From: Terriglobia bacterium
Lineage (GTDB): Bacteria > Acidobacteriota > Terriglobia > 20CM-2-55-15
Reading direction: 5' to 3'
Length of the DNA stretch: 64,000 bases
Assembly: GCA_965198225.1 (NCBI GenBank)
Contig: CBDAOY010000006.1
Location: 672,001-736,000, forward strand
The position numbers were made by a program, and so were the translations under genes. The notes beneath the pieces were generated by a model. The model was not told the origin of the DNA. It ran no database searches and saw only the letters and a program-made list of their open reading frames with translations. Within the stretch, counting starts at the first letter, position 1; each line of letters begins with the position of its first letter. Positions 33,525 to 64,000 of this stretch are shown here, one piece after another.

Positions 33525-34264
33525 TCCGCTCCCCGCGGCATGATGAAGGATTTGAACCAGTCCGTGGTCGCGGTCACCTTGTACTGTTGGATGGCTCCGG
33601 CCGGATCGACATTCTTCGGGCAAACCTTGGTGCACTCGCCGACGAAAGTGCAGCCCCAGACGCCTTCGTGGTCCGACAGCACTCCGAGGCGCTCCCGGGA
33701 GCCCTGGTCCCGTGAATCCATGTTGTAACGCTGAGCCAGGGCGATCGCAGCCGGCCCTGTGAAAGCCGAATCCAGTCCGTAGACCGGACAAGCCGCGTAG
33801 CACAGCATGCAGTTGATGCACATGCTGAACTGTTTGTATTGGTCCAGTTCCTCCGGGCTCTGCAGGTACTCTCCCTCCGAGAGAGGCTTTTCCTCTTCCC
33901 GGACGATCCACGGCTTGACGCTCTTGAGTTTTTCCATGAAATCCGTCATCTCGACTGTGAGATCGCGGACGATCGGGAAGTAACGCAGCGGCTCGATGCG
34001 GATAGGGCCTGGAGCGTAGTCGGAAACGAAGGTCGCACACGTCAGCTTGGGCTCCCCGTTTACCATCATGCCGCAACTGCCGCAGATTCCCATCCGACAG
34101 GACCATCGATACGACAGCGACCCGTCCACGTTGTCCTTGATGTAGTTGAGGGCGTCGAGGAGCACCCACTCATCGGTGAACGGCACCTCGTACTCTTGAA
34201 TCGTCGGTTCCGTTTCCTGCTCGGGCCGGTAACGTGTGACCTGAAGAACGACCTTCTCTGTCAT
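33521..34264 (-). CDS. frdB: fumarate reductase iron-sulfur subunit
   Basis: [23 protein letters not shown] and [13 protein letters not shown] clusters. Confidence 0.93.
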
Positions 34265-34270
34265 GTGCGC

Positions 34271-36013: not shown

Positions 36014-36133
36014 TACCACCCCGAAAAGTGCCTTTAGGCGAAGATTTCGACGAAAAGCCGTCGAGAATTTACACGTTGATGATCGCGCTGTCAAGGAGGC
36101 GCGAGACGGACCCCCCGGTTTGCGCAGGGCCTT

Positions 36134-36892
36134 TCATCCAGTCTCGGGGCGGGAGAGAATAGTCGCCACTACATGGTCGCGGTTCATCCGAGCGACCCAC
36201 TCGAGGGAGATCTCCTTCGGGCAGGCGGCCTCGCATTCGCCGGTGTTCGTGCAGGCTCCGAACATCTCGTCGTCCATCGCCGTTACCATGTTCAGCACGC
36301 GCTCGTGGCGTTCGGGCTGTCCCTGCGGCAACAGCCCGAGGTGGGCCACTTTCGCCGCGGTGAACAGCGTTGCCGAGGCATTGGGACAGGCCGCCACGCA
36401 GGCGCCGCAACCGATGCAGGACGCGGCGTCCATCGCCATCTCGGCCGTCTCTTTCGCAATCGGTATGGCGTTGGCTTCCGGAGCACTGCCCGTCGAAACC
36501 GAAATGTAGCCGCCGGCCTCGACGATCCTGTCCAACGTTCGACGATCGACCACCAGGTCTTTGATGATCGGGAAAGCGCGGGCCCGCCAGGGCTCGATCG
36601 TGATCGTGTCGCCGTCGGCGAACAGTCGCATGTGCAGCTGGCAGGTCGTCGTCGCGGGTGACGGCCCGTGTGGATGCCCGTTGATCACCACTCCACACGT
36701 CCCGCAGATTCCCTCCCGGCAGTCGTGGTCGAAAGCGATCGGATCCTCTCCCTTGAGGATCAGGTCCTCGTTGACGACATCCAGCATTTCCAGGAACGAC
36801 ATGTCCGGGCTGACGTCCGCGGCCCTGTAAGTCTGGAAGCGTCCACGATCCCGTGCGTCCTTTTGCCGCCACACACGGAGTGTGAGATTCAC
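36134..36892 (-). CDS. sdhB: succinate dehydrogenase/fumarate reductase iron-sulfur subunit (three-subunit type)
   Basis: [39 protein letters not shown]. Confidence 0.92.
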
Positions 36893-38805
36893 TACCTGTA
36901 GCTCCTTTGTGTCGGAGTGACGAATTCGAACATGAGGGGCTCCTTGTGCTGCATCGGAGTCACGTCCTCGCCCTGGTACTCCCAGGCTGCCACGTAGGAG
37001 AAGTCTTCGTCATCGCGCAGGGCTTCGCCGTCAGGAGTCTGGTGCTCGACCCGGAAATGGGAGCCGCACGACTCGTCTCGTTCCAGCGCATCCCGGCACA
37101 TCAGTTCGGCCAGTTCGAGGAAGTCGGCTACCCGGCCCGCTTTTTCCAGCGAAGGGTTCAGCTCTTCGTTGGTGCCGACAACCCGGACGTCCTCCCAGAA
37201 TTCCTGTCGCAGCGCCGGTATCTTATCGAGCGCGTCTCTCAGACTCTGTCTGTCGCGGGACATCCCGCAGGAATCCCACATGAGCTTCCCGAGTTTGCGA
37301 TGAAATTCGTCGACGGTCCGTTTCCCCTCGATCGCAAGCAGTTTCCGGGTCCGCTCTCCCACTCCGCGCTCCACGCGCTTGAACTCTTCGTGGTCCGGGG
37401 GCACCGAGTCTCGGGCGGAGCCCGCCAGGTAGTGGCCGATCGTGTAGGGAATGATGAAGTAGCCATCTGCCAGACCCTGCATCAGGGCGCTGGCCCCGAG
37501 CCTGTTGGCGCCATGATCCGAGAAGTTCGCCTCTCCGAGGACGAACAGACCGGGTATGGTGCTCATCAGGTTGTAGTCCACCCAGAGCCCGCCCATCACG
37601 TAGTGTACGGCCGGGAAGATGCGCATCGGCACCCGGTAGGGATCTTCGTCCGTGATGCGGCTGTACATGTCGAAGAGGTTTCCGTAGCGCTCGCGGATCG
37701 TCGTGTCGCCGAGGCGTTCGATCGCGGCCGCAAAGTCGAGATAGACTCCCAACCCGGTCGGGCCGACTCCGCGGCCCTCGTCGCAGATGGCTTTGGCGGC
37801 CCGGGAAGCGACATCACGCGGGACGAGGTTTCCAAAGCTCGGGTACCTGCGTTCCAGGTAGTAGTCGCGTTCGGCTTCGGGAATGTCCTTCGGGCGTCTC
37901 CGGTCCCCCTTCTCCTGCGGGACCCATATTCGGCCGTCATTGCGCAGCGACTCGCTCATCAGGGTCAGCTTCGACTGGTGCTCACCGGACACGGGAATGC
38001 AAGTTGGATGGATCTGGGTAAAGGACGGATTGGCCAGCGCGGCGCCGCGCTTGTAGGCACGCCAGATGGCTGGGGTATTGCATCCTTTCGCGTTCGTCGA
38101 GAGATAGTAGACGTTTCCGTACCCCCCCGTGCACAGGGCCACGGCGTCCGCAGCGTGGGATTGGATTTCACCGGTGACCATATCCCGGGTGACGATACCG
38201 CGGGCGTGGCCGTCGACGACGACGAGATCCAGCATCTCGGCTCGGGAGTTCATGACGACCCGACCGGCTGCAATCTGACGGGACAGGGCCTGGTAGGCGC
38301 CCAGCAGCAGCTGCTGACCCGTCTGGCCCCTGGCATAGAAGGTCCGGGAGACCTGCGCCCCTCCGAAAGAGCGGTTTGCCAGCACGCCGCCATACTCGCG
38401 CGCAAAGGGCACGCCCTGCGCGACGCACTGGTCGATGATGTTCCGGCTGATCTGAGCCAGGCGATAGACGTTTGCTTCACGCGATCTGTAATCCCCACCC
38501 TTGATTGTGTCGTAGAAAAGCCGAAATACGCTGTCACCGTCGTTCTGGTAATTCTTGGCGGCGTTGATACCCCCCTGAGCTGCGATGCTGTGGGCGCGAC
38601 GTGGACTGTCCTGATAGCAGAAACACTGGATGTTGTAGCCCAGTTCCGCCAGGGACGCAGCCGCCGAAGCTCCGGCCAGACCCGAGCCGACGACGATCAC
38701 GTTGTACTTTCGCTTGTTAGCGGGGTTGACCAGCTTCAGCCGTGATCGACGGCTGTCCCACTTTCTCTCGATCGGGCCGGACGGGGAGTTTGCACGAAGG
38801 TTCAT
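36892..38805 (-). CDS. sdhA: succinate dehydrogenase/fumarate reductase flavoprotein (three-subunit type)
   Basis: [34 protein letters not shown]. Confidence 0.93.
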
Positions 38806-39471
38806 TTAGCTGACGACTCCCATCAGTACGGCTAGAGGGATTGAAACGTAGCCCGCGACGATCAGGGAGCTGAGGATCAAGGCGCTGCGCTGAATCATTA
38901 GCTCATACTTCGGGTGATTCAGACCGACAGACTGGAACATGCTCCAGACGCCGTGCGCGATGTGGAGCCCCAGGCTCGAGACCGCCACGATGTAGAACAG
39001 TGCGACGGGCCATTGCTGGAATCCGCTCACGACGTTCGCGTACACGGCTTCGGCACGGAAATCCGGTTGCGACGGATGGACGGTTCCCAACGTCAAGTGC
39101 AGCAGGTGGTATATGACGAACAGACCGATTATCGGTCCGCTCCAGACCATCGTGCGGGAAGCGTAGCTGGCCTCCTCGTACTTGTGGAGTCGGTAGCCGA
39201 TCGGCCGCGCAGAGCGATTCCGAATAGCCAACTGCGTCGCAGCAAAGATATGCAGACCGAGGGCCGCGAGCAAGATGACTCGGGTGGTCCAGAGCACTTC
39301 CGGCTTTTCCTTCAGGAATCTGGCGTAGGAGTCCAGCACTTCCGGACCCGCGAATATCTGGAGGTTCCCGATGAGATGGCCGATGATGAACCCGAAAAGG
39401 ATCACGCCGGACACGGCCATGACGATCTTCTTGCCGACCGACGAGCTGTAAGGGCGCAGCATCCAGTGCAT
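38806..39471 (-). CDS. sdhC: succinate dehydrogenase cytochrome b subunit
   Basis: SSVGKKIVMAVSG...HLIGNL; five TM helices with conserved His residues. Confidence 0.9.
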   Translation of the reverse strand: MHWMLRPYSSSVGKKIVMAVSGVILFGFIIGHLIGNLQIFAGPEVLDSYARFLKEKPEVLWTTRVILLAALGLHIFAATQLAIRNRSARPIGYRLHKYEEASYASRTMVWSGPIIGLFVIYHLLHLTLGTVHPSQPDFRAEAVYANVVSGFQQWPVALFYIVAVSSLGLHIAHGVWSMFQSVGLNHPKYELMIQRSALILSSLIVAGYVSIPLAVLMGVVS

Positions 39472-39476
39472 CGTGC

Positions 39477-39977
39477 CTATTCCAGGAAGGAGGGCGATGT
39501 GTCTTCGGCGGTGGGTTCGAGATCGTGCTCCACAATGGTCCGAGCGCACGCATTCCAGCGCAGCACGGCGTCGTCGTTACCCGACGGCCGAATCTGTTCG
39601 GACTTCTCATACCAGTCCATGGCCTGTCGAAGCCAGTCGTAAGCGACGTAACCGGACCCTTCCGAGCCCTGCTTCAGGTGAGCCCTGCCGCGCCTCTCAT
39701 AGATGATGCCCGTGTAGTAGGTCCTCTGGTAGGGGTCTTGAAGCCGGGGCAGCAACTCTCGAGCCCGAGTGTAGGTGGCTCGTTCCATGTGCGTGAACTC
39801 ATCCGTAAGCGCGAGGATGAGTACGACGATCGCTTCCTGGTCGTCGGGATCGATACGCAGAATGTCGAGGCAGATACTCTCCGCCTGCTCGGGCTCGTTC
39901 AGGAGTCGGTAGTTCTTCGCGCGTTCGAGTGCGCGGGGAATGGTCTCGGAGGAGAGCGGCTTGAATTGGAACTCCAT
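39477..39977 (-). CDS. conserved hypothetical TPR-like protein
   Basis: ALERA..YRLLNEP..AESIC.DIL...DDAVLRWNAC; start at ATG 39977. Confidence 0.7.
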   Translation of the reverse strand: MEFQFKPLSSETIPRALERAKNYRLLNEPEQAESICLDILRIDPDDQEAIVVLILALTDEFTHMERATYTRARELLPRLQDPYQRTYYTGIIYERRGRAHLKQGSEGSGYVAYDWLRQAMDWYEKSEQIRPSGNDDAVLRWNACARTIVEHDLEPTAEDTSPSFLE

Positions 39978-44832: not shown

Positions 44833-47108
44833 TTGAAGCGTTTTTCCGTTTTTCCCCTTTTAGCCTTGCTGGCGCTGCCGGTGATGCTGTCCGCCGAGGC
44901 GGGGGGCCTGTCCGCGCAGGCGGGAGGGGTCGTCGAGGGCGTTGTCTCGCTCCCCACCGAAGCCCCGGCTCACCGAGCAACCGTCATGCTGGTTCAGCTC
45001 AGTCGCATCGTCGAGACCGACGAAGAAGGGCGATACCGCTTCGAGAACGTTCCAGGAGGCACGTACGAAGTCGTCGCCATCATGTCGGCAATGAGTGCGC
45101 CGAGCCAGGTCGTCGAGGTGTCGGCCGGAGTCACAGTTTCGCTCGACATCCAGCTGGCTGTCTCGCGCCTGAGGCAGCAGATCACGGTAACTGCAACCGG
45201 CCGTGAAGAGCTGACGTTCGAGGCCGTCCCGTCGGTCACGACCTTGGATTCTTTCGAATTGTCCGAGGCCATGGCGACGTCCATCGGCGAAGTCCTGAAT
45301 GGACAGTTGGGCGTCGCGAAGCGCAGCTTCGGCGCAGGCAATGCCCGGCCGGTGGTGCGCGGTTTTGACGGCGACCGGGTTCTCGTGATGCAGGACGGGA
45401 TCCGCGTCGGTTCGCTCGGCGCTCAATCAGGCGATCATGCGGAGCCGATCGACACCAGCAGTGTGGAGCGGGTGGAAGTCGTCAAGGGACCGGCTACGCT
45501 TCTCTACGGCAGCAACGCCGTCGGCGGCGTCGTGAACGCGGTGAGCAGTCACCAGAAATTCACCAGCGGCCCCACCAGGGTCTGCGGGGCCAGGTTTCGA
45601 CTTCCTTCGGAACGGGTAATGAACAGGCGGGCGGCAGCTTCAGTTCCGAGTACGGCTTCGAGAACTGGCTCGTTTGGGTGGGTGGCGGCGGACAGCGAAC
45701 CGATGACTACTCGACGCCAATCGGAAAGATCGAAAACTCGAAGAGCCGAATAAGCAACGGGTCCGCCGGAATCGGCTGGTACTCGGACGGTGGCTTCGTA
45801 AGCGCCGGCTACAAGGCCAACGATGGACGCTCCGGCATTCCGTTCGCCGGAAGTTTGCTCGGGCGCCATGAGCCAGGAGGCGAAGAAGCGGCAGCGGGAG
45901 AGGAAGAGGTCGAAGCCATCGACGTTGCCTTCCGCCGGCACAACGTGCACTTCACCGGCGGTCTCCGAGACCTCGGATCCACCATTGAGGGTTTCGAGCT
46001 CTCGCTGAACTACACGGACTGGAACCAGGACGAAGTCGAAACGCTGCGAGGCGGGATCCAGGAAGTCGGAACGACGTTCGAAAACAAGCAGTTCGTGTAC
46101 CGCGGGGTGTTCGAACAGGCGCGCCGCGGGGTGCTCGGCGGAAGCTTTGGTTTCTGGGGCATGACCCGGGACTACGAGCCCAAGGGCGAGGAGGCGCTGT
46201 CGCCTCCCGTCGACAAGAGAGCGTTCGCGGCTTTTGCGCTGGAGGAACTGGTGTACGACCGCGTAAAAGTTCATCTCGGAGGACGACTCGAACACACCCG
46301 GTACGAGCCAAAGGCGCCGGGCGCCGAGCGGACGGAGTTTTCGAGCCAGGCTTTCACCGGGCTCTCCGCCGGCATCGGCGCCCGCTTCGACCTGTGGTCG
46401 GGCGGGGCGTTCGTCGCCAACTACACGAGCTCGTTTCGCGCTCCAGCGTTGGAAGAGCTTTACAACTTCGGTCCGCACGTCGGCAATCTCACCTTTGAAA
46501 TCGGTAACCCGGACCTTGAACGCGAGCGTTCCAACGGCCTCGACTTCTCCCTCCGGCATCAACAGAGCCGCATCAGCGGTGAGGCCAATTTTTTTTACTA
46601 CGACCTCGACAACTTTGTATTCCTGGCGCCGACGGGTGAAATCGAAAGCGGTCTGACGGAGGCCGTATACGATCAGGGCGACAGCCGGTTCCTGGGAGCG
46701 GAAGTCAAACTCGACGTCGGGATCAACGACAGCATCTGGTTGACCCTGGTCCTGGATACGGTGGACACGCGACTCGAGGCAACCGATGGTGCGCTGCCCC
46801 GGATACCACCACTGCGGGGCACAGTCGGGCTTGACCTCCGGTCCAACGATTTCAGCGTGAGACCGGAAGTGGTCATGGCCGATTCACGGGACGACGTGTT
46901 TTCGACCGAGACGTCGACACCGGGCTACACCGTCTTCAACCTCAGGGCTTCCTACACGATTCCGCAGCAACATCTCGCCCACCACTTGTCGGTCAACTTC
47001 TTCAACATCGGCGACCGGCTCTACCGGAACCACGTGAGCTTCATAAAGGATCTCGCTCCCGAGATCGGGCGCGGGATTCGGTTCTCCTATGCGGTCAAGT
47101 ACTTCTAG
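44833..47108 (+). pseudogene. TonB-dependent receptor (ZnuD/metal-uptake-like) with a 1-nt frameshift near 45554
   Basis: Plug RPVVRG..GDRVLV.QDG...VEVVKGPATLLYGSNAVGGVVN; barrel ending in YF; frames join at CACCA^GAAATT. Confidence 0.82.
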
Positions 47109-50584: not shown

Positions 50585-51274
50585 ATGCCCGTAACGACAC
50601 GCATCCCGGAAGGCTGGTTTTGGATGGGTTCCGACGATTACCACCAGTCCGAGGCGCCCCGCCACCGGGTGTGGCTCGATTCCTTCGAATTGGCTCGGAC
50701 GACGGTCACGCACCGCGATTACGCGCAGTTCCTCGCGGCCACCGATCATGAACCGCCGAAGGGTTGGGGTGATGAGAATTTTTCCCTTCCGGAGCAACCC
50801 GTGGTGGGCGCGAGTTGGTTCGACGCCGTTGTCTACTGCGAGTGGTTGAGCGACTTGATGGGCAGGACTTATCGGTTGCCAACCGAGGCCGAATGGGAGA
50901 AAGCCTGTCGGGGCTCCGAGGAGGGCGGTCTCTACTACTGGGGAAACGAACCGCCCGAGACCCTCGACTACTTCCAGGGTAACTGGGACGGGCCGCGCTC
51001 GGTCGCGGAGTGGCGACCGAATAACTACGGCCTGTGGAACATGGGCGACAACGTCCACGAATGGTGCCAGGACTGGTATTCCGCCGATTACTATGCGATT
51101 TCACTCGGCCACAACCCGACCGGGCCCGTGAAGGGAACGCGTCGTGTTTCGCGGGGGGGATCGTGGCGTCACGAAATCAAGGCTTCCCGCATCACCCAGC
51201 GAAGCAGCATCCCGCCTTCCTACCGGTACACCGACTACGGTTTCCGGGTGGCCGCGAGCGTTGAGGCCCAGTAG
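50585..51274 (+). CDS. FGE-sulfatase (SUMF1/EgtB-like) domain protein
   Basis: F.MGS, P.H.V, RLPTEAEWEKACRG, N.YGL..MGDNV.EW, RGGSW, GFR. Confidence 0.9.
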   Translation: MPVTTRIPEGWFWMGSDDYHQSEAPRHRVWLDSFELARTTVTHRDYAQFLAATDHEPPKGWGDENFSLPEQPVVGASWFDAVVYCEWLSDLMGRTYRLPTEAEWEKACRGSEEGGLYYWGNEPPETLDYFQGNWDGPRSVAEWRPNNYGLWNMGDNVHEWCQDWYSADYYAISLGHNPTGPVKGTRRVSRGGSWRHEIKASRITQRSSIPPSYRYTDYGFRVAASVEAQ

Positions 51275-51297: not shown

Positions 51298-52281
51298 CTA
51301 TGGTGCGAAGTAGCCGTTGCGGGTCCGAACCGTGGACCCATCGCGGGTTCGAACGCGGATGTCGTGCCACCCGCGCCGCTCGACGTTGGAGGGGTAGTAA
51401 CCGAGCGTGTACTGGCTTCGAAGCTCGGCGGAGACCTCATCGAGGACCACGTCGATTTCGGTGGCGCTCCCACCCGTCCAAGTGCTCGAGACCAGGTATG
51501 CCTTGCCCCCGCTCGCCTCACCGAATGACCGCAGTACTTCCATGTCGACCGGTTCGTCGACGATGTTGGACGGCACTCCCCGCACACCCGGTACCGGAGA
51601 CAACGGCCAGTCGAAGGAGACGTGCTCGGTAGGGTCGGCGAACCGGGTTGGGTCGATCCCCAGGCCGTAGATCAGCATTTCTGACTTACGGACCGCCTCG
51701 AGGGTTTCCTCAAACTCCAGGGAACTGCTCGTGTCGTCTCCGTCGGTGAGCAGCAGTACGGCCCGCTTGTCGTGACGTCCATCCACGACTTTGTCGAGCC
51801 CCGCCGAAAGCGCATCGTAGAGGGCCGTCCCCCCGACGGCGCGAACTCTTCTCAGGGATCGCGACAGCTTCTCTCGGTCGCTGGTGATGTCTTGAATCAG
51901 CGAAACGCCTCCCGAGAAAGTCATGATGAACACGTCGTCATCCTCGTGCAATGTCCCGATGAATCGGTCTACCGCTCCCAGCGCCGTCCGCATTCGACGT
52001 TGCATGCTGCCGCTGGTGTCGATGACGATGCCCACGCTGGCCGGGATGTTCCGGTCCTGGGTGAAATGCACGATCTCCTGGGGGATCCCCCCGTCCTCGA
52101 TGATGAAGTCGTCTGCCGTGAGGTCGTCGACGTAACGCCCGTCTTGGTCCGTGACCGTCGCGACTACACTGACGAGCTGGATGTCGACCTGGAGAGTGTC
52201 CTGCTGTTGGCCGAACGATGGCAGGATTGCGACGACAAACGCCACGGCGAGTCCGGCAGCTGTTGGTACTCGTTTGCTCAT
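51298..52281 (-). CDS. secreted VWA-domain protein (Acidobacterial VWFA type)
   Basis: DTSGS MIDAS motif, GGTALYDA, LLTDGDDTSS, ELRSQYTLGYYP. Confidence 0.88.
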   Translation of the reverse strand: MSKRVPTAAGLAVAFVVAILPSFGQQQDTLQVDIQLVSVVATVTDQDGRYVDDLTADDFIIEDGGIPQEIVHFTQDRNIPASVGIVIDTSGSMQRRMRTALGAVDRFIGTLHEDDDVFIMTFSGGVSLIQDITSDREKLSRSLRRVRAVGGTALYDALSAGLDKVVDGRHDKRAVLLLTDGDDTSSSLEFEETLEAVRKSEMLIYGLGIDPTRFADPTEHVSFDWPLSPVPGVRGVPSNIVDEPVDMEVLRSFGEASGGKAYLVSSTWTGGSATEIDVVLDEVSAELRSQYTLGYYPSNVERRGWHDIRVRTRDGSTVRTRNGYFAP

Positions 52282-56692: not shown

Positions 56693-59062
56693 ATGCTACC
56701 GCGCATGAATCGAATCCGTCATCGAATGCTCGCGATCTTGCTGGTGAGCTCTTTTGTCTCGGTTCCAGGCTTTGCCCAACAGGTAGGCGCGCTCAGCGGG
56801 GCCGACTACGAGCGTGCCGAGCAGTTCCTCGGGTACAACACCAACCCGCTGGTGTTGCGTTCCGGCGTGCGCCCAAGCTGGCTCGAAGACGAGCGCTTCT
56901 GGTACCGCATCACGACAGGGCGCGGAGACGAGTTCATACTCATCGATCCGGCGGATGGAACGCGCGGACCCGCCTTCGATCATGCGCGCCTCGCGTCGGC
57001 CCTCTCCGAGGCCGCAGGCGAGAGCTATGAGGCCTTCGACCTTCCGTTTACCACGTTCGAATTCTCCGAAGCCGGCGGATCCGTCTCGTTTCGCGCCGCT
57101 GAGCGGAACTGGGAATGCGACCTCGAAGCGGGTCGTTGCGTCGAAGACGAAGCGGCCGGACGTTCCCGCGGGGGAAGCCGTGGAGGACGTGGCGGACGCG
57201 GAGGCGGGCCGCCTCCAAGCGTCGCCTCTCCGGACGGCAAGCGTGCAGTGTTCATTCGAGACTGGAATCTCTGGGTCCGGGAAGTTGAGGGCGGGGAAGA
57301 GACCCAACTGACCACCGATGGCATCGAAGACTACGGTTACGCTACCGACAACGCCGGATGGCGGAAGAGCGACCGACCGATCGTGGTGTGGTCCCCGGAT
57401 TCGAAGAAGGTCGCAACTTTTCAGCAGGACCAGCGCAACACGGGCGAGATGTACCTTGTCGACACCTCGGTAGGGCATCCTACCCTCCAGGCGTGGAAGT
57501 ACCCACTGCCTGGGGATGAGGAGATCACGATGATCGAACGGGTCGTCGTCGACGTCGAGAACCCGCGCGTGATCCGCTTCTTGATGGAACGCGATCAGCA
57601 CCGGTCCACGTTGTGTGACGACCTCCCGTGTCGCGGCAGTTGGCGCGATGTGCAGTGGAGCCCGGACAGTTCGGAAGTCGCCTTCGCTTCGACCTCGAGA
57701 GATCACAAGATCACCCGCCTTCGGGTCGCGGGTTCGTCGAGCGGCGAGGTGCGCGACGTTCTCGTCGAGACGGTCGAGACGTTCTTCGAGTCCGGAGACG
57801 GTGCCGTGAACTGGCACTTCCTGCCGGAGTCGAACGAAGTGATCTGGTTCTCTGAGCGCGACAACTGGGGTCACCTCTACCTCTATGATCTCGCGACCGG
57901 ACGCCTGAAGACCCCGATCACGCGCGGCGACGGCAACGTTACACAGGTGTTACGCGTCGACGAAGAAAACCGGATGATCTACTTCGTCGGCGTCGGCCGC
58001 GAAAGCGGACGCAATCCCTATTACCGCCATCTTTACCGCACGGGGTTTGACGGCGGCGACGCAGAGCTGCTTACAGAGGAGGATGCGGATCACAGCATCG
58101 CGGTCTCCCCTTCAGGACGGTTCTTCGTCGACAGCTTTTCGAAACCGGATGTCCCGGCGATCGCCGTGTTACGCGACGCCGATGGCGAACGGCTCATGAC
58201 CCTGGAGGAGGCAGACACAACCCGCCTGACGGCGACGGGTTGGAAGCCTCCGATTCCGTTTGTGGTCAAGGCACGTGACGGCGAGACCGATATCTACGGG
58301 ATGATGTTTCGGCCGACGAACTTCGACCCCAATCGAAAATACCCAATCATCAACAACATCTACCCGGGGCCCCAGTCGGGAAGCATCCGGGGCTGGAGCT
58401 TCTCCCCCGCGCGTGGGGACACCCAGGCGATCGCCGAGCTGGGTTTCATCGTGGTCCAGATCGATGGCATGGGAACTCCGGGTCGCTCGAAAGAGTTCCA
58501 CGAGGCCTACTACGGCGACATGGGCGACAACACGCTGCCCGACCAGGTGACCGGAATGCAACAGCTCGGAGAACGGTATTCCTGGATCGACATCGATCGT
58601 GCCGGAATCTACGGGCATTCCGGCGGCGGCTTCGCGACGAGCGGCGCCATGTTCCACTACCCCGACTTCTTCAAAGTCGGCGTGTCCCAGGCGGGGAACC
58701 ATGACAACCGCGTCTACGAGGACGACTGGGGGGAGAAGTGGCAGGGTCTCCTGACCCGCAACGAAGACGGTACCGACAGCTACGATAACCAGGCGAACCA
58801 GAACTTCGCGAAGAACCTCAAAGGCAAACTGCTGCTCGCCCACGGCACCCTCGACGACAACGTGCCCTACTACAGCACCCTGCTCGTCGTGGACGCGCTG
58901 ATCGAGGCCAACAAGGATTTCGATCTGATCCTGCTGCCGAACCGGCGGCACGGTTTCGGGAACGAGCCCTACATGATGCGACGCCGTTGGGACTACTTCG
59001 TCGAGCACCTCATGGGTGCCCAACCGCCCGACGACTACGAGTTCAGCCCCCCGGTGAATTGA
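56693..59062 (+). CDS. S9 family dipeptidyl-peptidase IV-like protein
   Basis: DPP-IV N-terminal propeller, YPGP, GHSGGG nucleophile, HGTLDDNV, catalytic His. Confidence 0.92.
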   Translation: MLPRMNRIRHRMLAILLVSSFVSVPGFAQQVGALSGADYERAEQFLGYNTNPLVLRSGVRPSWLEDERFWYRITTGRGDEFILIDPADGTRGPAFDHARLASALSEAAGESYEAFDLPFTTFEFSEAGGSVSFRAAERNWECDLEAGRCVEDEAAGRSRGGSRGGRGGRGGGPPPSVASPDGKRAVFIRDWNLWVREVEGGEETQLTTDGIEDYGYATDNAGWRKSDRPIVVWSPDSKKVATFQQDQRNTGEMYLVDTSVGHPTLQAWKYPLPGDEEITMIERVVVDVENPRVIRFLMERDQHRSTLCDDLPCRGSWRDVQWSPDSSEVAFASTSRDHKITRLRVAGSSSGEVRDVLVETVETFFESGDGAVNWHFLPESNEVIWFSERDNWGHLYLYDLATGRLKTPITRGDGNVTQVLRVDEENRMIYFVGVGRESGRNPYYRHLYRTGFDGGDAELLTEEDADHSIAVSPSGRFFVDSFSKPDVPAIAVLRDADGERLMTLEEADTTRLTATGWKPPIPFVVKARDGETDIYGMMFRPTNFDPNRKYPIINNIYPGPQSGSIRGWSFSPARGDTQAIAELGFIVVQIDGMGTPGRSKEFHEAYYGDMGDNTLPDQVTGMQQLGERYSWIDIDRAGIYGHSGGGFATSGAMFHYPDFFKVGVSQAGNHDNRVYEDDWGEKWQGLLTRNEDGTDSYDNQANQNFAKNLKGKLLLAHGTLDDNVPYYSTLLVVDALIEANKDFDLILLPNRRHGFGNEPYMMRRRWDYFVEHLMGAQPPDDYEFSPPVN

Positions 59063-59267
59063 GTCCAGATTCTCAACGATAGGACTGGCAGGCTGCTGAA
59101 AAACTCAGTCTTTCGGCAGTCTGCGGCGATGCTGAGAAAAGCCATGGAAGGCTTTTTCAGCATCCTAACTAGTCGCCTGATGAGAGTCATTAGTGGCAAA
59201 CACGGGTGAAGGCCCGTGATAAATTTTAGCTGCTAAAGGGGATTCCGCTTCTAATCTAAGTTAAGCC

Positions 59268-60629
59268 ATGCCCTACGTACCCGGATTCGACTACGACATC
59301 TTCGTCAGCTATGCGGCGGGCGACAACGATCAGGGAGTCGTGGAGCAGTTTGTCGCCACGTTAGAAAAGCAGATCTCCGACAATCTGGTAAACGCTTTCT
59401 CGAAGGAGAAAGTCCGGATCTACTTTGACCGCCAGCGGTTGGGCACTCCAGCCGGCGTCAATTGGGAGGAGCACCTGAAGGCGGCGGCGTCTTCTTCGGC
59501 CATTCTGGTTCCGTTGCTGTCGCCGAACTACCTGAGCTCCCATTACTGCAGCAAGGAGCGGGCCTGGTTCGGCACGCAACCGCATGTGGCCCAGGGTTGT
59601 CCATACGCGGTGGCGGGCTGGGTCCCCATTGGCGAGCATCCGCAACCCCGGGAGCTTGAAAAGGCCCAGCGGCATCCGGCCGGGGATTCGTGGCTGGCTC
59701 TGGCGCCGCCCGAAGATCGGCTCGAAAGCTGCAACGAATTTGCCCTCAAGTTGCGCGACGCCCTCGTGGAGATGCGGGCATCGGTAAGCGCCGTGTTCCT
59801 GGGCCCGGCCGCCGAGGGCCGCGGGGCGGCAGTGCGCAGCCGCCTCCGGGATGAGCTCGAGGTATCCGGTCACCGTGTCGTGCCGGTCCCCGACTTCGTG
59901 TACGAAAACGCCGAGGCAGTGCGAGCCGACCTGAATTCGTCGTTGCTTGCGATCCATTTCCCGGGCGATGGCCTGGATCTGGAAGGACTGATGGCCATCG
60001 AAGAGTCCTTCACGTCGGCGCCGAAGACGCTGCTCGTTCAACCCATCGGTTCCGCCCTATCCGACGACGAAGCCGCTCTGCTCGAAGAGATCGATGCCGG
60101 GTTGGTCCGTGGCGGACGCTTCGCTGGAGCGGCGTATTCCAGGTTCGCCGGCAAGAGCGACGATCAGATCTGGGAAGTGGTTCGCCGGGAGGTGCGGGCG
60201 GCCCGGTTCCAGAAAAACAAGAGCGAGTTTGCCGTGGGTATCGCGTGCGAGGCGGGCGATCTTTCCGGTGCGAAGGCCTTGGCGGCGCTCATCGGTGAAT
60301 TGGGCGTGCCGACACGGTATCCGTCGTTTGAAACCGCCACAAGCATCACCGAGAAGTTGAAGGCGCTGCGTGACACCATCACGGAGAGCCCGGCGCTGAT
60401 CTGTTACTGGGCGGCGTCGGCCGGGACCGGTCTCGAAAAGCGGCTGGCGCAGGATGCCCGCCGCCGGTACAAGGCCAGGGCCTGGTATCTGGGTCCGCCC
60501 CTGGATGCTCCGGCCAAAACGAATTTCACCCGGACGAACGAATTGGTCCTCCGCCAGGCGGCGGACACCGCGGATCTGACCGTGCTGGAACCATTCCTCC
60601 GGGAGTTGGGTTGGGAGCCCAAGGCATGA
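59268..60629 (+). CDS. TIR-domain protein
   Basis: YDIFVSYA, IYFD, SAILVPLLSPNYLSS.YC.KE (TIR catalytic Glu position); stop overlaps the next start (ATGA). Confidence 0.85.
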   Translation: MPYVPGFDYDIFVSYAAGDNDQGVVEQFVATLEKQISDNLVNAFSKEKVRIYFDRQRLGTPAGVNWEEHLKAAASSSAILVPLLSPNYLSSHYCSKERAWFGTQPHVAQGCPYAVAGWVPIGEHPQPRELEKAQRHPAGDSWLALAPPEDRLESCNEFALKLRDALVEMRASVSAVFLGPAAEGRGAAVRSRLRDELEVSGHRVVPVPDFVYENAEAVRADLNSSLLAIHFPGDGLDLEGLMAIEESFTSAPKTLLVQPIGSALSDDEAALLEEIDAGLVRGGRFAGAAYSRFAGKSDDQIWEVVRREVRAARFQKNKSEFAVGIACEAGDLSGAKALAALIGELGVPTRYPSFETATSITEKLKALRDTITESPALICYWAASAGTGLEKRLAQDARRRYKARAWYLGPPLDAPAKTNFTRTNELVLRQAADTADLTVLEPFLRELGWEPKA

Positions 60630-62507
60630 CGCCGAGCGCGATCCCACATAATCCTTACCCGGGCCTTCGTCCGTTCAAGCCGGAAGAGTCGACCCTCTTT
60701 TTTGGCCGCGACGAGCAGATCGGCGAAGCGCTGGACCGGCTGATGCGGCAGAAGCTGCTGGCCGTGGTGGGTGTGTCGGGCTGTGGCAAGAGCTCGCTGG
60801 TCACCGCGGGTATGGTGCCGGCGCTCGAGATGGGTCTGGCGGGCGACCCGGCTCAGCAGTGGCGGATCGAGATCATGCGGCCCGGCGACGGTCCGTTACG
60901 CGAACTGGAACGCTGTCTGGGCTTTGACAGCGGGCCGCTGGTCGAGCGGACCTATGGCCTCCGGGAGGCTGTGAAAGCGAATCTGCCGGAGGCCCAGAAC
61001 CTGCTGCTGGTTGTGGATCAGTTCGAGGAGATCTTCCCCTTTCGCGATCGTATGCGGGAAGGCGGAGGCACCGAGGCCGATCTCTTCGTCAGTTACATGC
61101 TGAGCGCCGCGCAACAGCCGGCCGCCCGGATCTACATCATTCTCACCATGCGGTCGGACTACCTGGGTGAATGCGCCAGGTTCCATGGACTCCCAGAGGC
61201 CCTGAACGACGGCCAGTATCTGGTGCCGCGCATGACGCGTTCGCAGTTGCAGGAGGCGATCGAGAACCCGCTGGGGGGGGATCGAGAGCGCCGACGGCGA
61301 GTCGGTCGAGTTCCATCCGGGTCTGGTCCAGAAGCTGCTGAACGACTGCGACGAAGAACCCGACAACCTTCCGCTGCTGCAGCATCTGCTGCGCCGGTTG
61401 TTTGAACAGTGGCAGGATGCGGGCGCCCGAGGGCAGATCACGCCGGCGATGGCCAGGGACGTCGGAGAACTCGCCGACGCCCTCAACCAGGATGCGGACA
61501 CGGTTTTCAAGGCGCTTTCGACCGAGCGGCAGGGGATCGCGGAAGTGCTCTTCCGCCGGATTACGGAATCGCGCCAGCAGGCAGGCGGCGCCGAGGACGA
61601 ACGGCCCGTGCGGCGTCCGCAAACCGTCGCCCGTCTGGCAGAACTGGCGCAAGTACCCGTGTCCGAGCTGCGCGCCGTGGTGGATCCCTTCGACGAGCGG
61701 GGGCTGCTGGTATTGCGGGCGACGGACGAAGGCGACAAGGTCGACCTCCCCCACGAGTGCCTATGCCCGAAGTGGAACCGGCTGCGGCAGTGGATCGAAG
61801 ACGAAGCGCAGGATGCCAAGGCTCTGCGCTTTCTTCGAGACTCGGTCGGCAAGAGCCACCTCACCGGCTCCGCCCTGGCGGAAGCGGTCGGCTGGCAGGA
61901 CGCGGGCCGGCTGAAGGCCGCCTGGGGCGAGCGCTACTTGAGCCGCGAAAGCGTCCGCGAGGTGGGTGCCTGGGTCACCGGGAGTCGGCGCAGGGCCCGG
62001 GCGACTCAAATCATCCTCGCCGTCGCAGCCGTCGCGGCCATCGTAGGCCTGGGAGGGATGGCCTACTACCAGACAGTGATCGCACAGCAACAGGAAGACC
62101 AACTGATCGCTCAGCAACAGCAGTTGTTCGATGCCGCGATCGTCGTCGACGACCAAACGACCCGGGAGGACCAAAAACATCTGTGGTGGATACGCTTTGA
62201 TAACAGTCGAGACCCTGACTACGGCTCGGACATCAACTGGGATGAAGCAATGGCGTACTGCGATCAGCTATCGCTGCTTGACTATCGAGGTTGGCGACTC
62301 CCGACGATCGACGAACTGGTAGCGATCTGGAACCCAGCCACTAGGTCCAGCCGCTTGCCAATGGCGACTCCCGTGTATGCGTGGAGTTCTGATTTGGAAG
62401 GGTCGGGCTCCGCGTGGCTCTTCTTCTTCCACGACGGCTACCGGCTCTCGAGCTCGGTCGTCTCCCCCTACTTCCGCGCCTTGTGCGTGCGCGTTCCGGA
62501 TGAATGA
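60626..62507 (+). CDS. DGR target: nSTAND1-like NTPase + TM helix + DUF1566/CLec-fold variable domain; +1 frameshift in G8 tract 61273-61280
   Basis: NPYPGLRPF..FFGRD, GVSGCGKSS, LLVVDQFEE, TMRSDY, PLLQH (restored with G7), HE.L...W.RL..W, TM IILAVAAVAAIVGLGG, NWDEA..YC..L....WRLPTI.EL, WSS, ALCVR. Confidence 0.88.
62398..62507 (+). repeat. DGR variable region (VR)
   Basis: Aligns to 63078-63191 with 18 substitutions at TR adenines, one non-A substitution and one 3-nt gap. Confidence 0.95.
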
Positions 62508-62568
62508 TGTGGGTGATTGGGTGATTTGATTATTTCTTTTGTGCAGTCGAACTGAAAAGGTTATCGCG

Positions 62569-62958
62569 ATGGCGCGCTACGAGCACCTGCCGATCTACAA
62601 ACGGACGCTGGACTTGCTGCTCTATTTCGAGAAGATCGTCCCGAAGTTCTCCCGCTACGACAAGTACACCATCGGTACCGACCTGAGAAACACGACGCGA
62701 TCCGTCCTGAAGTTGATTGTTCGCGCCAACAGCAGCCGGGACAAGCGGCCGGTGCTTGAGGAAATCCGCACCGAATTGGAGGAGCTGATGATTCTGGTGC
62801 GCGTGGCCAAAGAGGTCCGGGCGTTCGAGAATCTGAACTCCTATCAGTATTCTGCCGGCGAGATCATAGAGATCAGCCGGCAGAATGAGGGGTGGCTGAG
62901 AAGTCTGGAACGGAAACAACCAGAATCATCCTCTCGATCACAACCGGTAGAGAGATGA
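62569..62958 (+). CDS. avd: DGR accessory variability determinant (Avd, four-helix bundle)
   Basis: LPIYK...DL......F.R..KYTIG..LR...EI.RQ..GW; lies between VR and TR. Confidence 0.88.
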   Translation: MARYEHLPIYKRTLDLLLYFEKIVPKFSRYDKYTIGTDLRNTTRSVLKLIVRANSSRDKRPVLEEIRTELEELMILVRVAKEVRAFENLNSYQYSAGEIIEISRQNEGWLRSLERKQPESSSRSQPVER

Positions 62959-63077
62959 GCGTGTTGACTTCATCATTCTGAGTCCTTCCCGCCCATGTGG
63001 CATATGCATTCAGGGCGTCCTACCTTCGGGCTGGGCGCCCGGTGGCCGGTCTTCGGATCGGACGAAGTGGAAGGATC

Positions 63078-63191
63078 AAGGGTCGGGCTCCGCGTGGAAC
63101 TTCAACTTCAACAACGGCAACCGGAACTCGAACCCGGTCGACAACCGCAACAACAACCGCGCCTTGTGCGTGCGCGTTCCGGAGAATGATG
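63078..63191 (+). ncRNA. DGR template region (TR)
   Basis: Copy of the VR with 11 AAC codons and one GAC at the variable positions; sits between avd and RT. Confidence 0.95.
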
Positions 63192-63599
63192 CGTTCCCTG
63201 TTTTCATTCGAAAAGATTCACGAAGCGTACCTGAGCTGCCGCAAAGGCAAGCGCCGGAGCCGCAATGCCCTTCTTTTCGAGGAGCGCCTGGAGGAGAATC
63301 TGTTTCGACTCTCGGGCGAGCTTCAGGCCCGGACTTATCAGCCATCCCCTTCGACCTGCTTCGTGACCGCGAAACCGAAACACCGGGAGATCTTCGCGGC
63401 CGAGTTTCGCGACCGCGTGGTGCACCACCTGATCGTCACCCACCTCGAACCCATCTGGGAACGGATCTTCATCCACGATTCCTACGCGTGCCGGCCCGGT
63501 AAGGAAACGCATCGGGCGGTGTTCCGACTGCAGGAATTCATGCGGCGTGCGACATCGAACGGGACAAGGACTGCGTATTTTCTCCAGGTCGATGTCCGA
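63186..63599 (+). pseudogene. DGR-type reverse transcriptase, N-terminal about 138 codons only
   Basis: Hand translation MMRSLFSFEKIHEAYLSCRKGKR...LEENL..L..EL..RTYQP...KPKHREIFAAEFRDRVVHH...IFIHDSYACRPGKETH.A...YFLQVDV; homology stops there and no YxDD motif follows. Confidence 0.85.
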
Positions 63600-63719
63600 C
63601 CCGGCTCGGCGCCACAGTGGTTCGTATCCGGATTCCGAACTTCGAGGTACTCGAAGGGCGTGAGAACGATGTCGCGGGTCAGAGACCGCGATGGCGGACA
63701 ATGCGCTGGACCCGACCGT

Positions 63720-64000
63720 TCATGGGCACCCGACGTCGATGCCCAAGTCAGCGAGTTCGGCCAACGAATCCGCGAGAGACAGCGGGGCCCCGTGAGTTGG
63801 GATGATCGTCAGCGGGACCGCGGAATTGCAGCTTGTATCGATGATGTCAAGGTCACGCAGGCCAGCAAAGAGCGACTCCGGGCCACCGAGGACCAGCGTC
63901 AGCCCAAACGCCGCGTTGTAAAGATCCGCCTCGTACACAAACACTTCCCCGCCGGTCTCGACAACAGTAATCAGCATGTCGTCGGCGTGTGGGTTGGCGC
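63720..64000 (-). CDS. 3' end of a probable metallo-beta-lactamase-fold protein (partial)
   Basis: NPHADDML...YEADLY...IIPTHG pattern; runs off the window edge. Confidence 0.55.
   Translation of the reverse strand, partial: ANPHADDMLITVVETGGEVFVYEADLYNAAFGLTLVLGGPESLFAGLRDLDIIDTSCNSAVPLTIIPTHGAPLSLADSLAELADLGIDVGCP

Follow-up and report, generated by a model that had tools for sequence, protein, structure and literature searches.

Receptors that join a STAND NTPase to a C-type-lectin-fold (CLec) domain and are diversified by a diversity-generating retroelement (DGR) have already been described as "antigen sensors" (Kaur 2021, PMC8195603; Doré 2024, PMC10907252), with DGR 3 and DGR 6 of Thiohalocapsa PB-PSB1, whose reverse transcriptase (RT) belongs to clade 5D, as examples in the excerpts of Doré 2024 used here. 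Judged against the excerpts of both papers, the locus analysed here, which lies in the window (the whole 64-kb stretch of DNA under study), shares with these sensors a central nSTAND1 NTPase followed by a C-terminal C-type-lectin-fold domain that carries the VR, an adjoining DGR RT and four-helix accessory gene, an associated TIR effector and a chromosomal, non-phage setting. The nature of its target, an nSTAND1 NTPase partnered by a TIR protein, leads us to place it in this published class. It differs from the sensors of these excerpts in its lectin, which is of the DUF1566/Lcl_C rather than the FGE/FGS type; in its TIR domain, which sits unfused on a separate, translationally coupled protein whose ~320-residue C-terminus falls in no known family; in a predicted transmembrane (TM) helix that would put the lectin outside the cytoplasm, where the excerpts of Kaur 2021 describe intracellular sensing and those of Doré 2024 one periplasmic case; and in the damage it carries, a truncated RT and a frameshifted target. 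The locus is a genuine DGR, as its adenine-specific TR/VR pair, its Avd, the order target-avd-TR-RT and its DGR-like RT N-terminus establish. With moderate confidence, we read it as a chromosomal DGR of the DUF1566/CLec class that formerly rewrote the lectin of a TIR-partnered receptor and is now a probable relic.

TR and VR differ almost exclusively at TR adenines

All features lie on the forward strand unless stated otherwise. MAFFT and a pairwise aligner both aligned TR (63078-63183) with VR (62398-62500), which bears out, as a 103/106-nt repeat, the TR/VR pair reported by an earlier, sequence-only reading of this DNA. An identical block opens the two copies (20 nt, AAGGGTCGGGCTCCGCGTGG) and another closes them (27 nt, CCGCGCCTTGTGCGTGCGCGTTCCGGA); between these lie the variable part of VR (62418-62473) and the adenine-rich core of TR (63098-63156). 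Recounting this core gave the same 23 adenines and, in the target frame, the same 11 AAC codons and one GAC as before, and the derived figure of 4^23 = 7.0×10^13 possible variants is arithmetically correct. With the gap placed by the aligner, 17 of the 18 substitutions between the identical blocks hit adenines of TR, ten of them as A>T, five as A>C and two as A>G, the sole exception being a C>T change at TR 63134/VR 62454, and all 18 occupy the first or second position of a codon when read in the target frame. VR carries a single in-frame 3-nt gap relative to TR whose position is ambiguous; deleting a CGC codon, the option taken by the sequence-only reading, reproduces its count of 19 substitutions with 18 at adenines. 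Absence of an adenine bias on formal alignment had been named beforehand as an outcome that would speak against a DGR; the bias held under either placement (adenines versus other bases, Fisher p = 1.6×10−12 with the aligner's gap and 4.9×10−13 with the reader's). The lone non-adenine change and the 3-nt indel beside AAC repeats are no argument for decay, because, of the 372 DGRs counted in the part of Wu 2018 used here, 86 also show changes at bases other than A and 25 show length differences, most of them next to AAC.

The GC-rich, IMH-like block of VR spans 62474-62500 with an imperfect continuation to ~62509, and the IMH*-like end of TR runs into the RT start codon, the end of TR and the start of RT overlapping. 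No further TR-like copy was found on either strand of the window at ≤20% non-A mismatches, and the region 3′ of VR contains no significant GC-rich hairpin (z = −0.55; 63 of 200 shuffles fold equally well).

An intact avd precedes a truncated reverse transcriptase

Between VR and TR lies avd (accessory variability determinant, 62569..62958), whose 129 codons form an open frame with a GC3 typical of coding sequence. An HMM search, as the sequence-only reading had proposed, confirmed the identity of its 129-aa product, which matched Pfam bAvd above the cutoff (3.3×10−13, 50.5 bits versus 40); NCBIfam DivGenRetAVD matched at 2.3×10−15, yet its 56.8 bits are under the cutoff of 80, and a PDB sequence search with avd returned no match at E≤1. 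The order target-avd-TR-RT is, as claimed, that of canonical DGRs.

The RT gene (63189..63599) codes for residues 1-137 only, ending in AYFLQVDV. In the PDB, this stump matched the DGR-type RT chain 8ub7_A (E = 5.6×10−19, over residues 13-135 of the chain), also the top match of the complete RT of L069, a DGR described below, whereas retron and group II RTs matched at 8×10−6 or weaker. The assignment to the DGR type therefore stands by 13 orders of magnitude over retron and group II RTs, the alternative that had been named as contradicting it, although only 137 of some 500 residues are present. Relatives of this RT are ~500 aa long with a C-terminal extension; P0048 (518 aa) is 75% identical to the stump, and the similarity collapses past residue 137. 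Homology to the ~500-aa DGR RTs thus ends at 63599, ahead of the [I/V/L]GxxxSQ and YxDD motifs; every catalytic motif from motif A on is missing, and the cut after residue 137 leaves no catalytic centre. Searches with full-length relatives (4/4) found no remaining RT segment anywhere in the window. Among the best 120 of 1512 relatives together with the L069 RT, 119 of 121 carry [LIVM]GxxxSQ, an SQ-type motif that the excerpt of PMC7826257 used here gives as a DGR signature, and 0 of 121 carry the group II motif QGxxxSP. The sole NCBIfam match of the stump was a group II intron RT/maturase model (8.1×10−14, 51.5 bits versus a cutoff of 300). The point at which the cassette is cut off is marked by the 3′ end of a convergent MBL-fold metallo-hydrolase gene outside the DGR (63720..63998, reverse strand), which matches the C-terminus of P0030 (535 aa) at 100%; its relatives (63-80% identity) carry PF12706/PF00753 (Pfam), and some, from Myxococcota/Myxococcales MAGs, are named MBL fold metallo-hydrolase.

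The target is a frameshifted nSTAND1-lectin gene

The DGR target gene (60626..62507) codes for an nSTAND1 NTPase, one predicted TM helix and an Lcl_C/DUF1566 lectin that contains VR. It had been taken for one gene frame, which did not hold: the sequence and comparison with relatives show the frame broken at a G8 homopolymer (61273..61280), the protein resuming in another frame from 61281 (IESADGESVEFHPGLVQKLLNDC...). Positions 1-200 of the Pfam nSTAND1 profile match in the frame of 60626 and positions 235-367 in that of 61398, and P0002 and P0003 (48-49% identity) cover both halves unbroken; intact relatives measure 638-643 aa. The split belongs to the assembly itself, for it recurs in the deposited 352-aa protein P0001, which is 100% identical and comes from a 2,784,501-bp contig. 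The G8 frameshift might have arisen in assembly, and a gene for a TonB-dependent receptor elsewhere in the window is split as well; on the other hand, several other runs of at least 7 nt, one of them a G8 at 17303, fall within ORFs that stay open across them.

The single TM helix is predicted at 62010..62066 (IILAVAAVAAIVGLGGMAY), the only 19-mer region with a Kyte-Doolittle mean above 1.6 (peak 2.31). It is preceded by SRRRARA, and aligned relatives have a hydrophobic stretch after an Arg-rich stretch at the equivalent place. By the positive-inside rule, this arrangement suggests a cytoplasmic NTPase and an extracytoplasmic lectin. The Lcl_C (DUF1566) C-type-lectin-fold domain (62157..62492; Pfam 3.1×10−13, 50.5 bits versus 34.9) is closed by VR; its AlphaFold2 model (mean pLDDT 88.7) best matched the C-terminal domain of Legionella Lcl in the PDB (8q4e_A, TM 0.62, E = 1.1×10−4), followed by C-type lectin-like chains.

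A TIR-domain protein is coupled to the target

The TIR-domain partner protein (59268..60629, 453 aa) bears its TIR domain at the N-terminus (Pfam TIR_2, 1×10−9, 39.4 bits versus 28; the NCBIfam FxsC_Nterm TIR-like match is under its cutoff), and its C-terminal ~320 aa matched no family. Its Atlas leads were only TIR proteins of ~450 aa at a score of ~0.91, and none of the PADLOC models fitted the TIR protein, the NTPase or Avd. The stop codon of the TIR partner overlaps the target start (ATGA at 60626-60629), and its orthologues in L001 (68% identity) and L002 (30%), MAGs of Bryobacteraceae and Ca. Angelobacter respectively, are each followed immediately by an nSTAND1 gene, again with an ATGA overlap; 46 of 80 reference nSTAND1 ORFs have a fused TIR. 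A predicted complex of the L001 pair, modelled on these orthologues instead of the broken gene of the window, reached an ipSAE of 0.72 against 0.00 for the best of three controls, a value that 58 out of 80 solved complexes attain, compared with 2 out of 110 mismatched pairs; because the alignments used here were our own, these counts hold only roughly. The runs had at least 66% of contacts in common, with a partner pLDDT of at least 78. Together, the overlap and the model suggest that the TIR protein is co-translated with the target and probably binds it.

We thus hypothesize that the target was the receptor of a conflict system, in which a single TM helix joined an nSTAND1 NTPase in the cytoplasm to a hypervariable lectin outside it, and that the separate TIR-domain protein was its effector. 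RT and Avd would copy the avd-TR-RT transcript with random bases opposite template adenines, and the cDNA, guided by IMH, would take the place of VR; by adenine-mutagenic retrohoming of this kind, the cassette in the past rewrote ~19 codons at the end of the lectin domain. Binding of an invader or foreign surface molecule by a lectin variant could then switch the NTPase and release TIR activity.

The DGR is probably inactive in cis

The sequence-only reading had implied a complete DGR of the canonical kind, which is true of its TR/VR pair, its avd and its gene order, and not of its RT stump, its frameshifted target and the region after VR, where a GC-rich hairpin is missing. Given the RT truncation and the target frameshift, we take the locus in all likelihood for a relic, or at most for a receptor that could be diversified in trans alone, and the DGR is probably inactive in cis. 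That it functions in the organism, either because the lesions are assembly artefacts or because an intact RT and Avd elsewhere act in trans, is a tentative alternative, which we find rather doubtful. It is favoured by the position of the frameshift in a homopolymer, by the other split gene and by the intact state of TR, avd, the IMH-like block and the VR frame. Moreover, the window extends only 400 nt past the stump within a 2.78-Mb contig, elsewhere on which a second RT may act in trans; remote targets and trans-acting avd, TR and RT are documented in the part of Wu 2018 used here, and that of Doré 2024 reports genomes of such bacteria with several DGR loci each. However, an indel error would not typically remove ~380 RT codons and leave another conserved gene 120 nt further on, and L004, a related locus, has a cassette of this type that decayed independently, indicating that decay occurs in this lineage; that none of the best 120 of 1512 RT relatives lies on a contig as long as that of the window speaks weakly in the same direction.

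The two other explanations that we considered concern what the element is and what it served. If there were no DGR, the 106-nt repeat would be an ordinary 3′-end duplication and the RT fragment a group II intron or retron remnant, as the lone NCBIfam match, far under its cutoff, and the automatic naming of some RT relatives as "retron-type" or "group II intron" RTs might suggest. Yet an adenine bias of 17/18 confined to codon positions 1 and 2 is unexpected under drift, an Avd gene lies between the repeats, and Rfam detected no intron or retron RNA in 59000-64000; with the PDB match and the motif counts, these observations effectively refute the remnant, and we regard this explanation as extremely improbable. 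It is improbable, if less so, that the DGR served a non-defence target, the lectin being a surface adhesin or signalling receptor comparable to the Legionella LdtA-type DUF1566 proteins and the TIR gene merely adjacent. DUF1566-class DGR targets are typically surface-exposed according to the part of Wu 2018 used here, the lectin is predicted to be extracytoplasmic, PADLOC gave no defence-system match, and, according to the excerpts of Doré 2024, no STAND-CLec system has been studied by experiment. In contrast, the TIR/nSTAND1 stop/start overlap is kept across three genomes, even with a WD40 sensor, more than half of the reference nSTAND1 ORFs have a fused TIR, and the predicted L001 complex passes its controls, all of which argues against a non-defence target.

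Comparison with known systems

Bordetella phage BPP-1 (mtd-avd-TR-brt) has the same order target-avd-TR-RT, and, as far as the sources used here describe them, the DGRs of BPP-1 and Legionella LdtA share with the locus an AAC-rich TR, a GC-rich IMH-like block and a CLec-fold target with a C-terminal VR, LdtA also belonging to the DUF1566 class (Wu 2018). Unlike these two, the locus has a target other than a phage tail fibre or a lipoprotein, lacks a GC-rich inverted repeat after IMH and has a TR that abuts the RT start with no spacer; its RT relatives are ~500 aa long with a C-terminal extension, compared to 328 aa for the solved RT. L004 (Acidobacteriota MAG contig CAWHCF010000036.1) is a decayed sister cassette with an nSTAND1-Lcl_C target, a damaged RT and the same IMH/RT-start sequence (…CCGGAGAATGATG…). 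There, nothing separates the end of VR from the RT start, and avd and a separate TR, both intact in the window, are gone; RT residues 95-407 are missing, whereas the RT of the window lacks everything past 137.

L069 (Chloroflexota MAG contig JANRJX010000139.1) is a complete DGR acting on a TIR-nSTAND1-FGE protein. It resembles the locus in its nSTAND1 target with TIR and a C-terminal lectin VR, its Avd, its A-biased TR/VR pair, in which 24 of the 26 substitutions affect A, and its RT, 45% identical over the stump. It differs in that TIR is fused to the NTPase, the lectin is of the FGE-sulfatase type, the order is target-RT-avd-TR and the RT is complete (352 aa, with IGNQTSQ and YVDD). For the TIR partner and the NTPase alike, the nearest reference-genome relatives are found in L001 and L002 (NTPase identities of 76/63% and 55/39%), but their sensor is a WD40 beta-propeller, and the DNA around these genes contains no TM-lectin, Avd, RT or TR/VR, showing that the lectin and its DGR are a swapped-in module. 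The architecture of the locus is thus already known, and we add to it one more case, seen here as a probable relic.

An adenine-biased repeat pair at the 3' end of the target gene

Alignment of TR (63078-63183) with VR (62398-62500), by MAFFT and by a pairwise aligner, revealed a repeat that opens with a 20-nt identical block and closes with a 27-nt identical GC-rich block. Between these blocks lie 18 substitutions, 17 of which fall at TR adenines (10 A>T, 5 A>C and 2 A>G), the sole non-adenine change in the aligner's alignment being a C>T at TR 63134. VR also has a 3-nt in-frame gap relative to TR, for which two placements are equally good; placing it as the loss of a CGC codon gives 19 substitutions, 18 of them at adenines. 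The adenine enrichment is found with both (Fisher p = 1.6e-12 or 4.9e-13, depending on gap placement), and 18/18 substitutions occupy codon positions 1 or 2 of the target frame. The TR core holds 23 adenines, with 11 AAC codons and one GAC in that frame, and the theoretical repertoire is 4^23 = 7e13 at the DNA level and 15^11 x 4, about 3.5e13, at the protein level. An earlier sequence-only reading of this DNA had reported such a repeat pair: alignment, adenine enrichment and codon positions all confirm the observation, its count of 18 adenine sites among 19 substitutions is reproduced with its own gap placement, and we obtained the same 23 core adenines and the same 4^23, about 7e13, DNA variants.

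VR lies at the 3' end of the target ORF and ends 7 nt upstream of its stop codon. At the sequence level, the arrangement is IMH/IMH*-like: the 27-nt identical GC-rich block is followed by TGAATGATG in VR and by GAATGATG in TR, after which the copies diverge. The block CGCGCCTTGTGCGTGCGCGTTCCGGA would mark further TR or VR copies of this DGR, and neither further TR copies nor other targets of TR were found on either strand of the window. After VR, no hairpin or cruciform was detected: folding of the DNA at 62490-62575 gave z = -0.55, with an equally good fold in 63 of 200 shuffled sequences. No structure better than shuffles was found in the avd-TR spacer (z = -1.31) or at the TR/RT junction (z = +0.70). 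By the counts in the part of Wu 2018 (PMC5758913) available to us, a GC-rich inverted repeat downstream of IMH occurs in only 127 of 372 DGRs and is therefore not obligatory. The same source gives non-A changes in 86/372 and length differences in 25/372 of the catalogued DGRs, and places 74% of the indels beside AAC. The lone non-A change of the window and its 3-nt indel by AAC repeats are within this catalogued range, and by themselves are no sign of decay.

Avd and the RT

The avd ORF (62569-62958, 129 aa) is located between VR and TR. An HMM search of its product, proposed along with the sequence-only reading, gave a Pfam bAvd match above cutoff (50.5 bits vs 40) and an NCBIfam DivGenRetAVD equivalog match below cutoff (56.8 vs 80 bits); a PDB sequence search with Avd gave no match. 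The 3' end of TR overlaps the start of an RT-like ORF (63189-63599), referred to below as the RT stump. Its residues 1-137 match PDB 8ub7_A, a 328-aa 'Reverse transcriptase', with an E-value of 5.6e-19, and retron and group II RTs in PDB match at 8e-6 or weaker. We take PDB 8ub7 to be the Bordetella bRT. Chain 8ub7_A can serve as a DGR-type reference because the complete, bona fide DGR RT of L069, a Chloroflexota locus related to the target, has it as by far the best PDB match (1.2e-48 vs 7.4e-19).

A search for longer relatives of the RT stump gave 1512 hits among 1595 candidates, the best 120 of which are 58-75% identical to it and mostly 490-520 aa long. Across these best 120 of 1512 relatives and the L069 RT, [LIVM]GxxxSQ is present in 119/121, YxDD in 94/121 and QGxxxSP in 0/121. 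According to the part of Handa 2021 (PMC7826257) available to us, DGR RTs have [I/V/L]GxxxSQ as their signature motif, and the form found in group II/retroviral RTs is QGxxxSP. A group II intron or retron was rejected on the RT scores and motif counts, and a Rfam search of 59000-64000 at E<=1 returned 0 families, hence no structured RNA match that could represent a cognate RNA. The sole contrary signals are the NCBIfam group II RT model, which remains far below its cutoff on the stump (51.5 vs 300 bits), and names such as 'retron-type', assigned automatically to some relatives among the matches listed. Judged by its sequence, the N-terminus of the stump is of DGR type. Clustering with group II or retron RTs, which the sequence-only reading had named as an argument against a DGR, was not found, given the 8ub7_A match and the distribution of the two motifs. 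The relatives of about 490-520 aa (P0048-P0167) are about 150 aa longer than the DGR RTs of 328-352 aa, and many of them have a weak precomputed PF01624 (MutS_I) match in their C-terminal extension, as does the RT remnant at L004, an Acidobacteriota locus described below.

Truncation of the RT

In a BLASTP comparison, the RT stump and the 518-aa relative P0048 are densely identical as far as ...AYFLQVDV (residue 137, nt 63599), past which the alignment is noise. By tblastn with four full-length relatives, RT residues 138 onward were found nowhere in the window (4/4), and three of the four alignments ended exactly at 63599. The signature and catalytic motifs sit at about 212 and 244 in the relatives; since residues beyond 137 are missing, both [I/V/L]GxxxSQ and YxDD are absent from the RT of the window. 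Continuation of the RT in another frame or place was ruled out by tblastn and a Pfam search. Downstream, on the minus strand, the ORF 63720-63998 codes for the C-terminal end of an MBL-fold hydrolase of 535 aa, whose relatives (18 hits among 679 candidates) show 63-80% identity and include some named from Myxococcota/Myxococcales MAGs. An IS insertion was ruled out as the cause of the truncation, this ORF being a conserved hydrolase and no transposase. The cassette was therefore cut off either by a deletion or by misassembly.

Architecture and frameshift of the target gene

If intact, the target (60626-62507, plus strand) would code for an nSTAND1 NTPase (Pfam, 60653-61844), one strongly hydrophobic helix (62010-62066, Kyte-Doolittle 2.31) with SRRRARA ahead of it, and an Lcl_C/DUF1566 domain (62157-62492, above the Pfam cutoff). 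The STAND NTPase is N-terminal to the lectin, as in DGR conflict systems, and is interrupted by a frameshift. From the positive-inside rule, the NTPase would face the cytoplasm and the lectin would lie outside it. The last 131 residues of the target were modelled with AlphaFold2 (mean pLDDT 88.7); the model has the Legionella Lcl C-terminal domain 8q4e_A as its best PDB match (TM 0.62), followed by C-type-lectin-like chains, and VR maps to residues ~103-121 of this model, in its last strands. Many short proteins (P0012 and P0015-P0024, 264-593 aa) have TIR fused directly to a DUF1566 lectin that is 41-48% identical to that of the window, without an NTPase, and could represent the same kind of sensor reduced to TIR and lectin.

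The target is divided between two frames: that of 60626 holds the match to Pfam nSTAND1 positions 1-200 (4.2e-53), and that of 61398 the match to positions 235-367 (2.1e-18). Both halves are spanned without a break by two relatives whose genes are intact, P0002 (643 aa) and P0003 (638 aa). The shift is sited at a G8 run (61273-61280) inside the nSTAND1 domain, and reading from 61281 in the second frame restores the missing segment. The deposited protein P0001 (352 aa, from a 2,784,501-bp contig) has the same split as the target. Of the 12 homopolymers of at least 7 nt in the window, several besides this one, among them a G8 at 17303, are located within ORFs whose frame stays unbroken. The frame shift may be a sequencing error or a real lesion.

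A TIR protein predicted to dock on the NTPase

Directly upstream of the target, the gene at 59268-60629 codes for a protein of 453 aa whose N-terminal TIR_2 domain scores above the Pfam cutoff, and the stop of this gene overlaps the target start (ATGA, 60626-60629). An invariant Glu at 97, inside a ...SSHYCSKE... stretch, is presumably the catalytic Glu of NADase TIRs. The C-terminal ~320 residues match no family in Pfam, NCBIfam, PADLOC, PDB or the Atlas: a PDB sequence search with the whole protein returned only matches with E>0.5, and an Atlas search with the C-terminal part gave only leads at ~0.91, to TIR-domain clusters.

Because the NTPase gene of the window is broken, we predicted the complex with intact orthologues from a Bryobacteraceae locus (L001), taking residues 1-445 of nSTAND1 together with the TIR protein of 455 aa and supplying small alignments that we had made ourselves. 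The complex scored 0.72 (median of three runs) and the best of 3 controls 0.00; at least 66% of the contacts were common to the runs, and partner pLDDT was at least 78. In calibration, the mark for this score was reached by 58/80 solved complexes and 2/110 mismatched pairs, counts that hold only roughly here because own alignments were used. The confident predicted interface pairs TIR-protein residues ~328-400, within the family-less C-terminal region, with NTPase residues ~19-79 and 215-221. This prediction supports, short of proving, binding of the TIR protein to the NTPase.

Related loci and the origin of the lectin cassette

Genome contigs were searched with a profile of aligned target homologues, which gave 174 matching stretches, 109 of them confirmed and the best 80 kept; the features of these loci were determined by tblastn and local profile searches, with an Lcl_C profile made from trimmed alignment columns. 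Among these best 80 of the 109 confirmed loci, the NTPase N-half is present in 76/80 and the C-half in 80/80, a fused TIR of the L069 type in 46/80 NTPase ORFs, WD40 repeats in 35/80 and an FGE-type lectin in 19/80. Within the same set, an Lcl_C-type lectin occurs in 2/80 (L003 and L004), a homologue of the TIR partner in 2/80 (L001 and L002) and a stump-like RT in 2/80 (L069 and L004), with a window-type Avd in 1/80 and an A-biased repeat pair in 1/80, both at L069.

L001 and L002 (Ca. Angelobacter) are the two closest loci of this set. Identity to the window is 68% and 30%, respectively, for the TIR partner, and 76/63% and 55/39% for the NTPase, and the TIR/NTPase ATGA overlap is kept in all three genomes. 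At L001 (7878-11560) and L002 (7861-11851), WD40 repeats stand in place of the TM helix and lectin of the window, and the homology between the window and L001 stops just before the TM helix. GC content is 55-59% over 62000-63600 (lectin-avd-TR-RT) vs 63-70% over the TIR and NTPase genes. These observations fit a lectin-avd-TR-RT block that was joined as a module to an older TIR/NTPase chassis. The NTPase-WD40 gene of L002 is itself split into two ORFs at 9956.

The L069 locus is complete: it codes for a TIR-nSTAND1-FGE protein of 972 aa, an RT of 352 aa and Avd, and 24/26 substitutions in its TR/VR pair are at A. At L004 (Acidobacteriota MAG, 10961-12648), the VR end of an nSTAND1-Lcl_C gene runs directly into the RT start, through a junction, …CCGGAGAATGATG…, that is the same sequence as the TR/RT junction of the window; avd and a separate TR are both lacking, and the RT has lost its residues 95-407. 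L004 is a second decayed example, with a decay route unlike that of the window. As the RT is broken in both the window and L004, an A-biased TR/VR pair alone is no proof of a working DGR. L004 also has an inverted VR-like copy (11969-11807, 76% over 164 nt). It lies downstream of a TIR ORF on the minus strand (12139-12648), and this ORF could be a second target in convergent orientation.

Genomic surroundings

The surrounding 59 kb code for ordinary chromosomal functions such as EF-G, succinate dehydrogenase and hydantoinases, and no phage genes were seen there. Counts of sigma-70-type promoters and intrinsic terminators equalled those of shuffles. The window has one more gene that is broken or mis-assembled, coding for a TonB-dependent receptor (44833-47108, plus strand) and split into CarboxypepD_reg and Plug (44833-45753) and a beta-barrel (45678-47108) in overlapping frames, with no homopolymer of at least 6 nt in the overlap. 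On the plus strand at 50585-51274, a stand-alone 229-aa FGE-sulfatase-fold protein adjoins a vWA-domain protein (51298-52281, minus strand); it is not a target of this DGR, since it has no TR match. A ParE-toxin-like ORF (32327-32638, plus strand; PF05016, 8e-09) and a small upstream ORF of no family (31733-32092) may form a toxin-antitoxin pair. Two adjacent succinate dehydrogenase/fumarate reductase sets (33108-39549, minus strand) have the flavoprotein and Fe-S subunit twice and differ in their membrane subunits.

Mechanism and present status of the locus

The adenine specificity of the changes from TR to VR records past mutagenic retrohoming into the last strands of the lectin. Following the parts of Wu 2018 (PMC5758913) and Handa 2021 (PMC7826257) available to us, an avd-TR-RT RNA would have been copied by RT-Avd with misincorporation opposite adenines, and IMH would have directed the replacement of VR. 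Following the parts of PMC8195603 and PMC10907252 available to us, a lectin variant that binds an invader would switch the STAND NTPase, and the TIR effector would then be activated. The sequence-only reading had claimed a DGR at 60626-63599; its identity as a DGR holds, and its completeness and function were overstated.

As assembled, with the RT reduced to a stump and the target frameshifted, the locus can neither be diversified in cis nor yield a full-length receptor, and for this reason we regard it as probably a relic, or dependent on functions in trans at best. For this DGR to be functional, the same two lesions would have to be artefacts, or an RT would have to be supplied in trans, which we consider conceivable but doubtful. 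Speaking weakly against a second RT on the same contig, none of the best 120 of 1512 relatives of the RT stump comes from a contig of that length. We also hold it improbable that a bacterial NLR-like receptor here exchanged one sensor module for another and that the new sensor was then 'frozen'. Such a swap would have given the TIR-partner/nSTAND1 chassis, which has a germline WD40 sensor in its nearest relatives, a TM helix and an extracytoplasmic, DGR-hypermutated lectin, and loss of the RT would then have hard-wired one selected lectin variant. If so, the receptor of the window would be outside-in, somatically diversified and wired to a cytoplasmic TIR effector.

Comparison with published systems

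PADLOC 2.0, which covers Avs, Thoeris, DRT and other systems, assigned 0 families to the TIR protein, both NTPase parts and Avd; on the RT stump it returned only a generic RT model, with weaker Cas1_IIIb and Drt9 model matches. Kaur 2021 (PMC8195603) defined nSTAND1 and, in the part available to us, describes STAND-FGS proteins that have TIR or another effector and are associated with an RT and a four-helix protein. The available part of Doré 2024 (PMC10907252) describes, in multicellular bacteria, DGR targets of the nSTAND1/NACHT-CLec type whose effectors are TIR or a peptidase, and regards them as putative antigen sensors, the protective function of the published STAND/TIR DGR examples being experimentally untested according to that part. 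DUF1566 is a standard DGR target class (category d, 51/372, in the available part of Wu 2018, PMC5758913). DGR-diversified STAND/TIR systems are a proposed bacterial analogue of adaptive antigen receptors.

Here too an effector accompanies the STAND NTPase, as the upstream TIR_2 gene is paired with it in three genomes and in the predicted L001 complex. The locus belongs to this already published class, and its architecture may already stand in the supplements of Doré 2024, Kaur 2020/2021 or Wu 2018. Its differences are of variant grade. The cassette is crippled, and the nearest relatives have WD40 sensors, so that the same chassis with a WD40 sensor in close relatives provides a natural comparison pair. 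In contrast to the published class, the lectin is of the DUF1566 type and stands behind a TM helix, which by the inferred topology suggests that a hypervariable lectin can sit outside the membrane, and TIR is carried by a separate protein, showing that the effector can be encoded apart from the receptor, with a conserved family-less C-terminal region predicted to dock on the NTPase.
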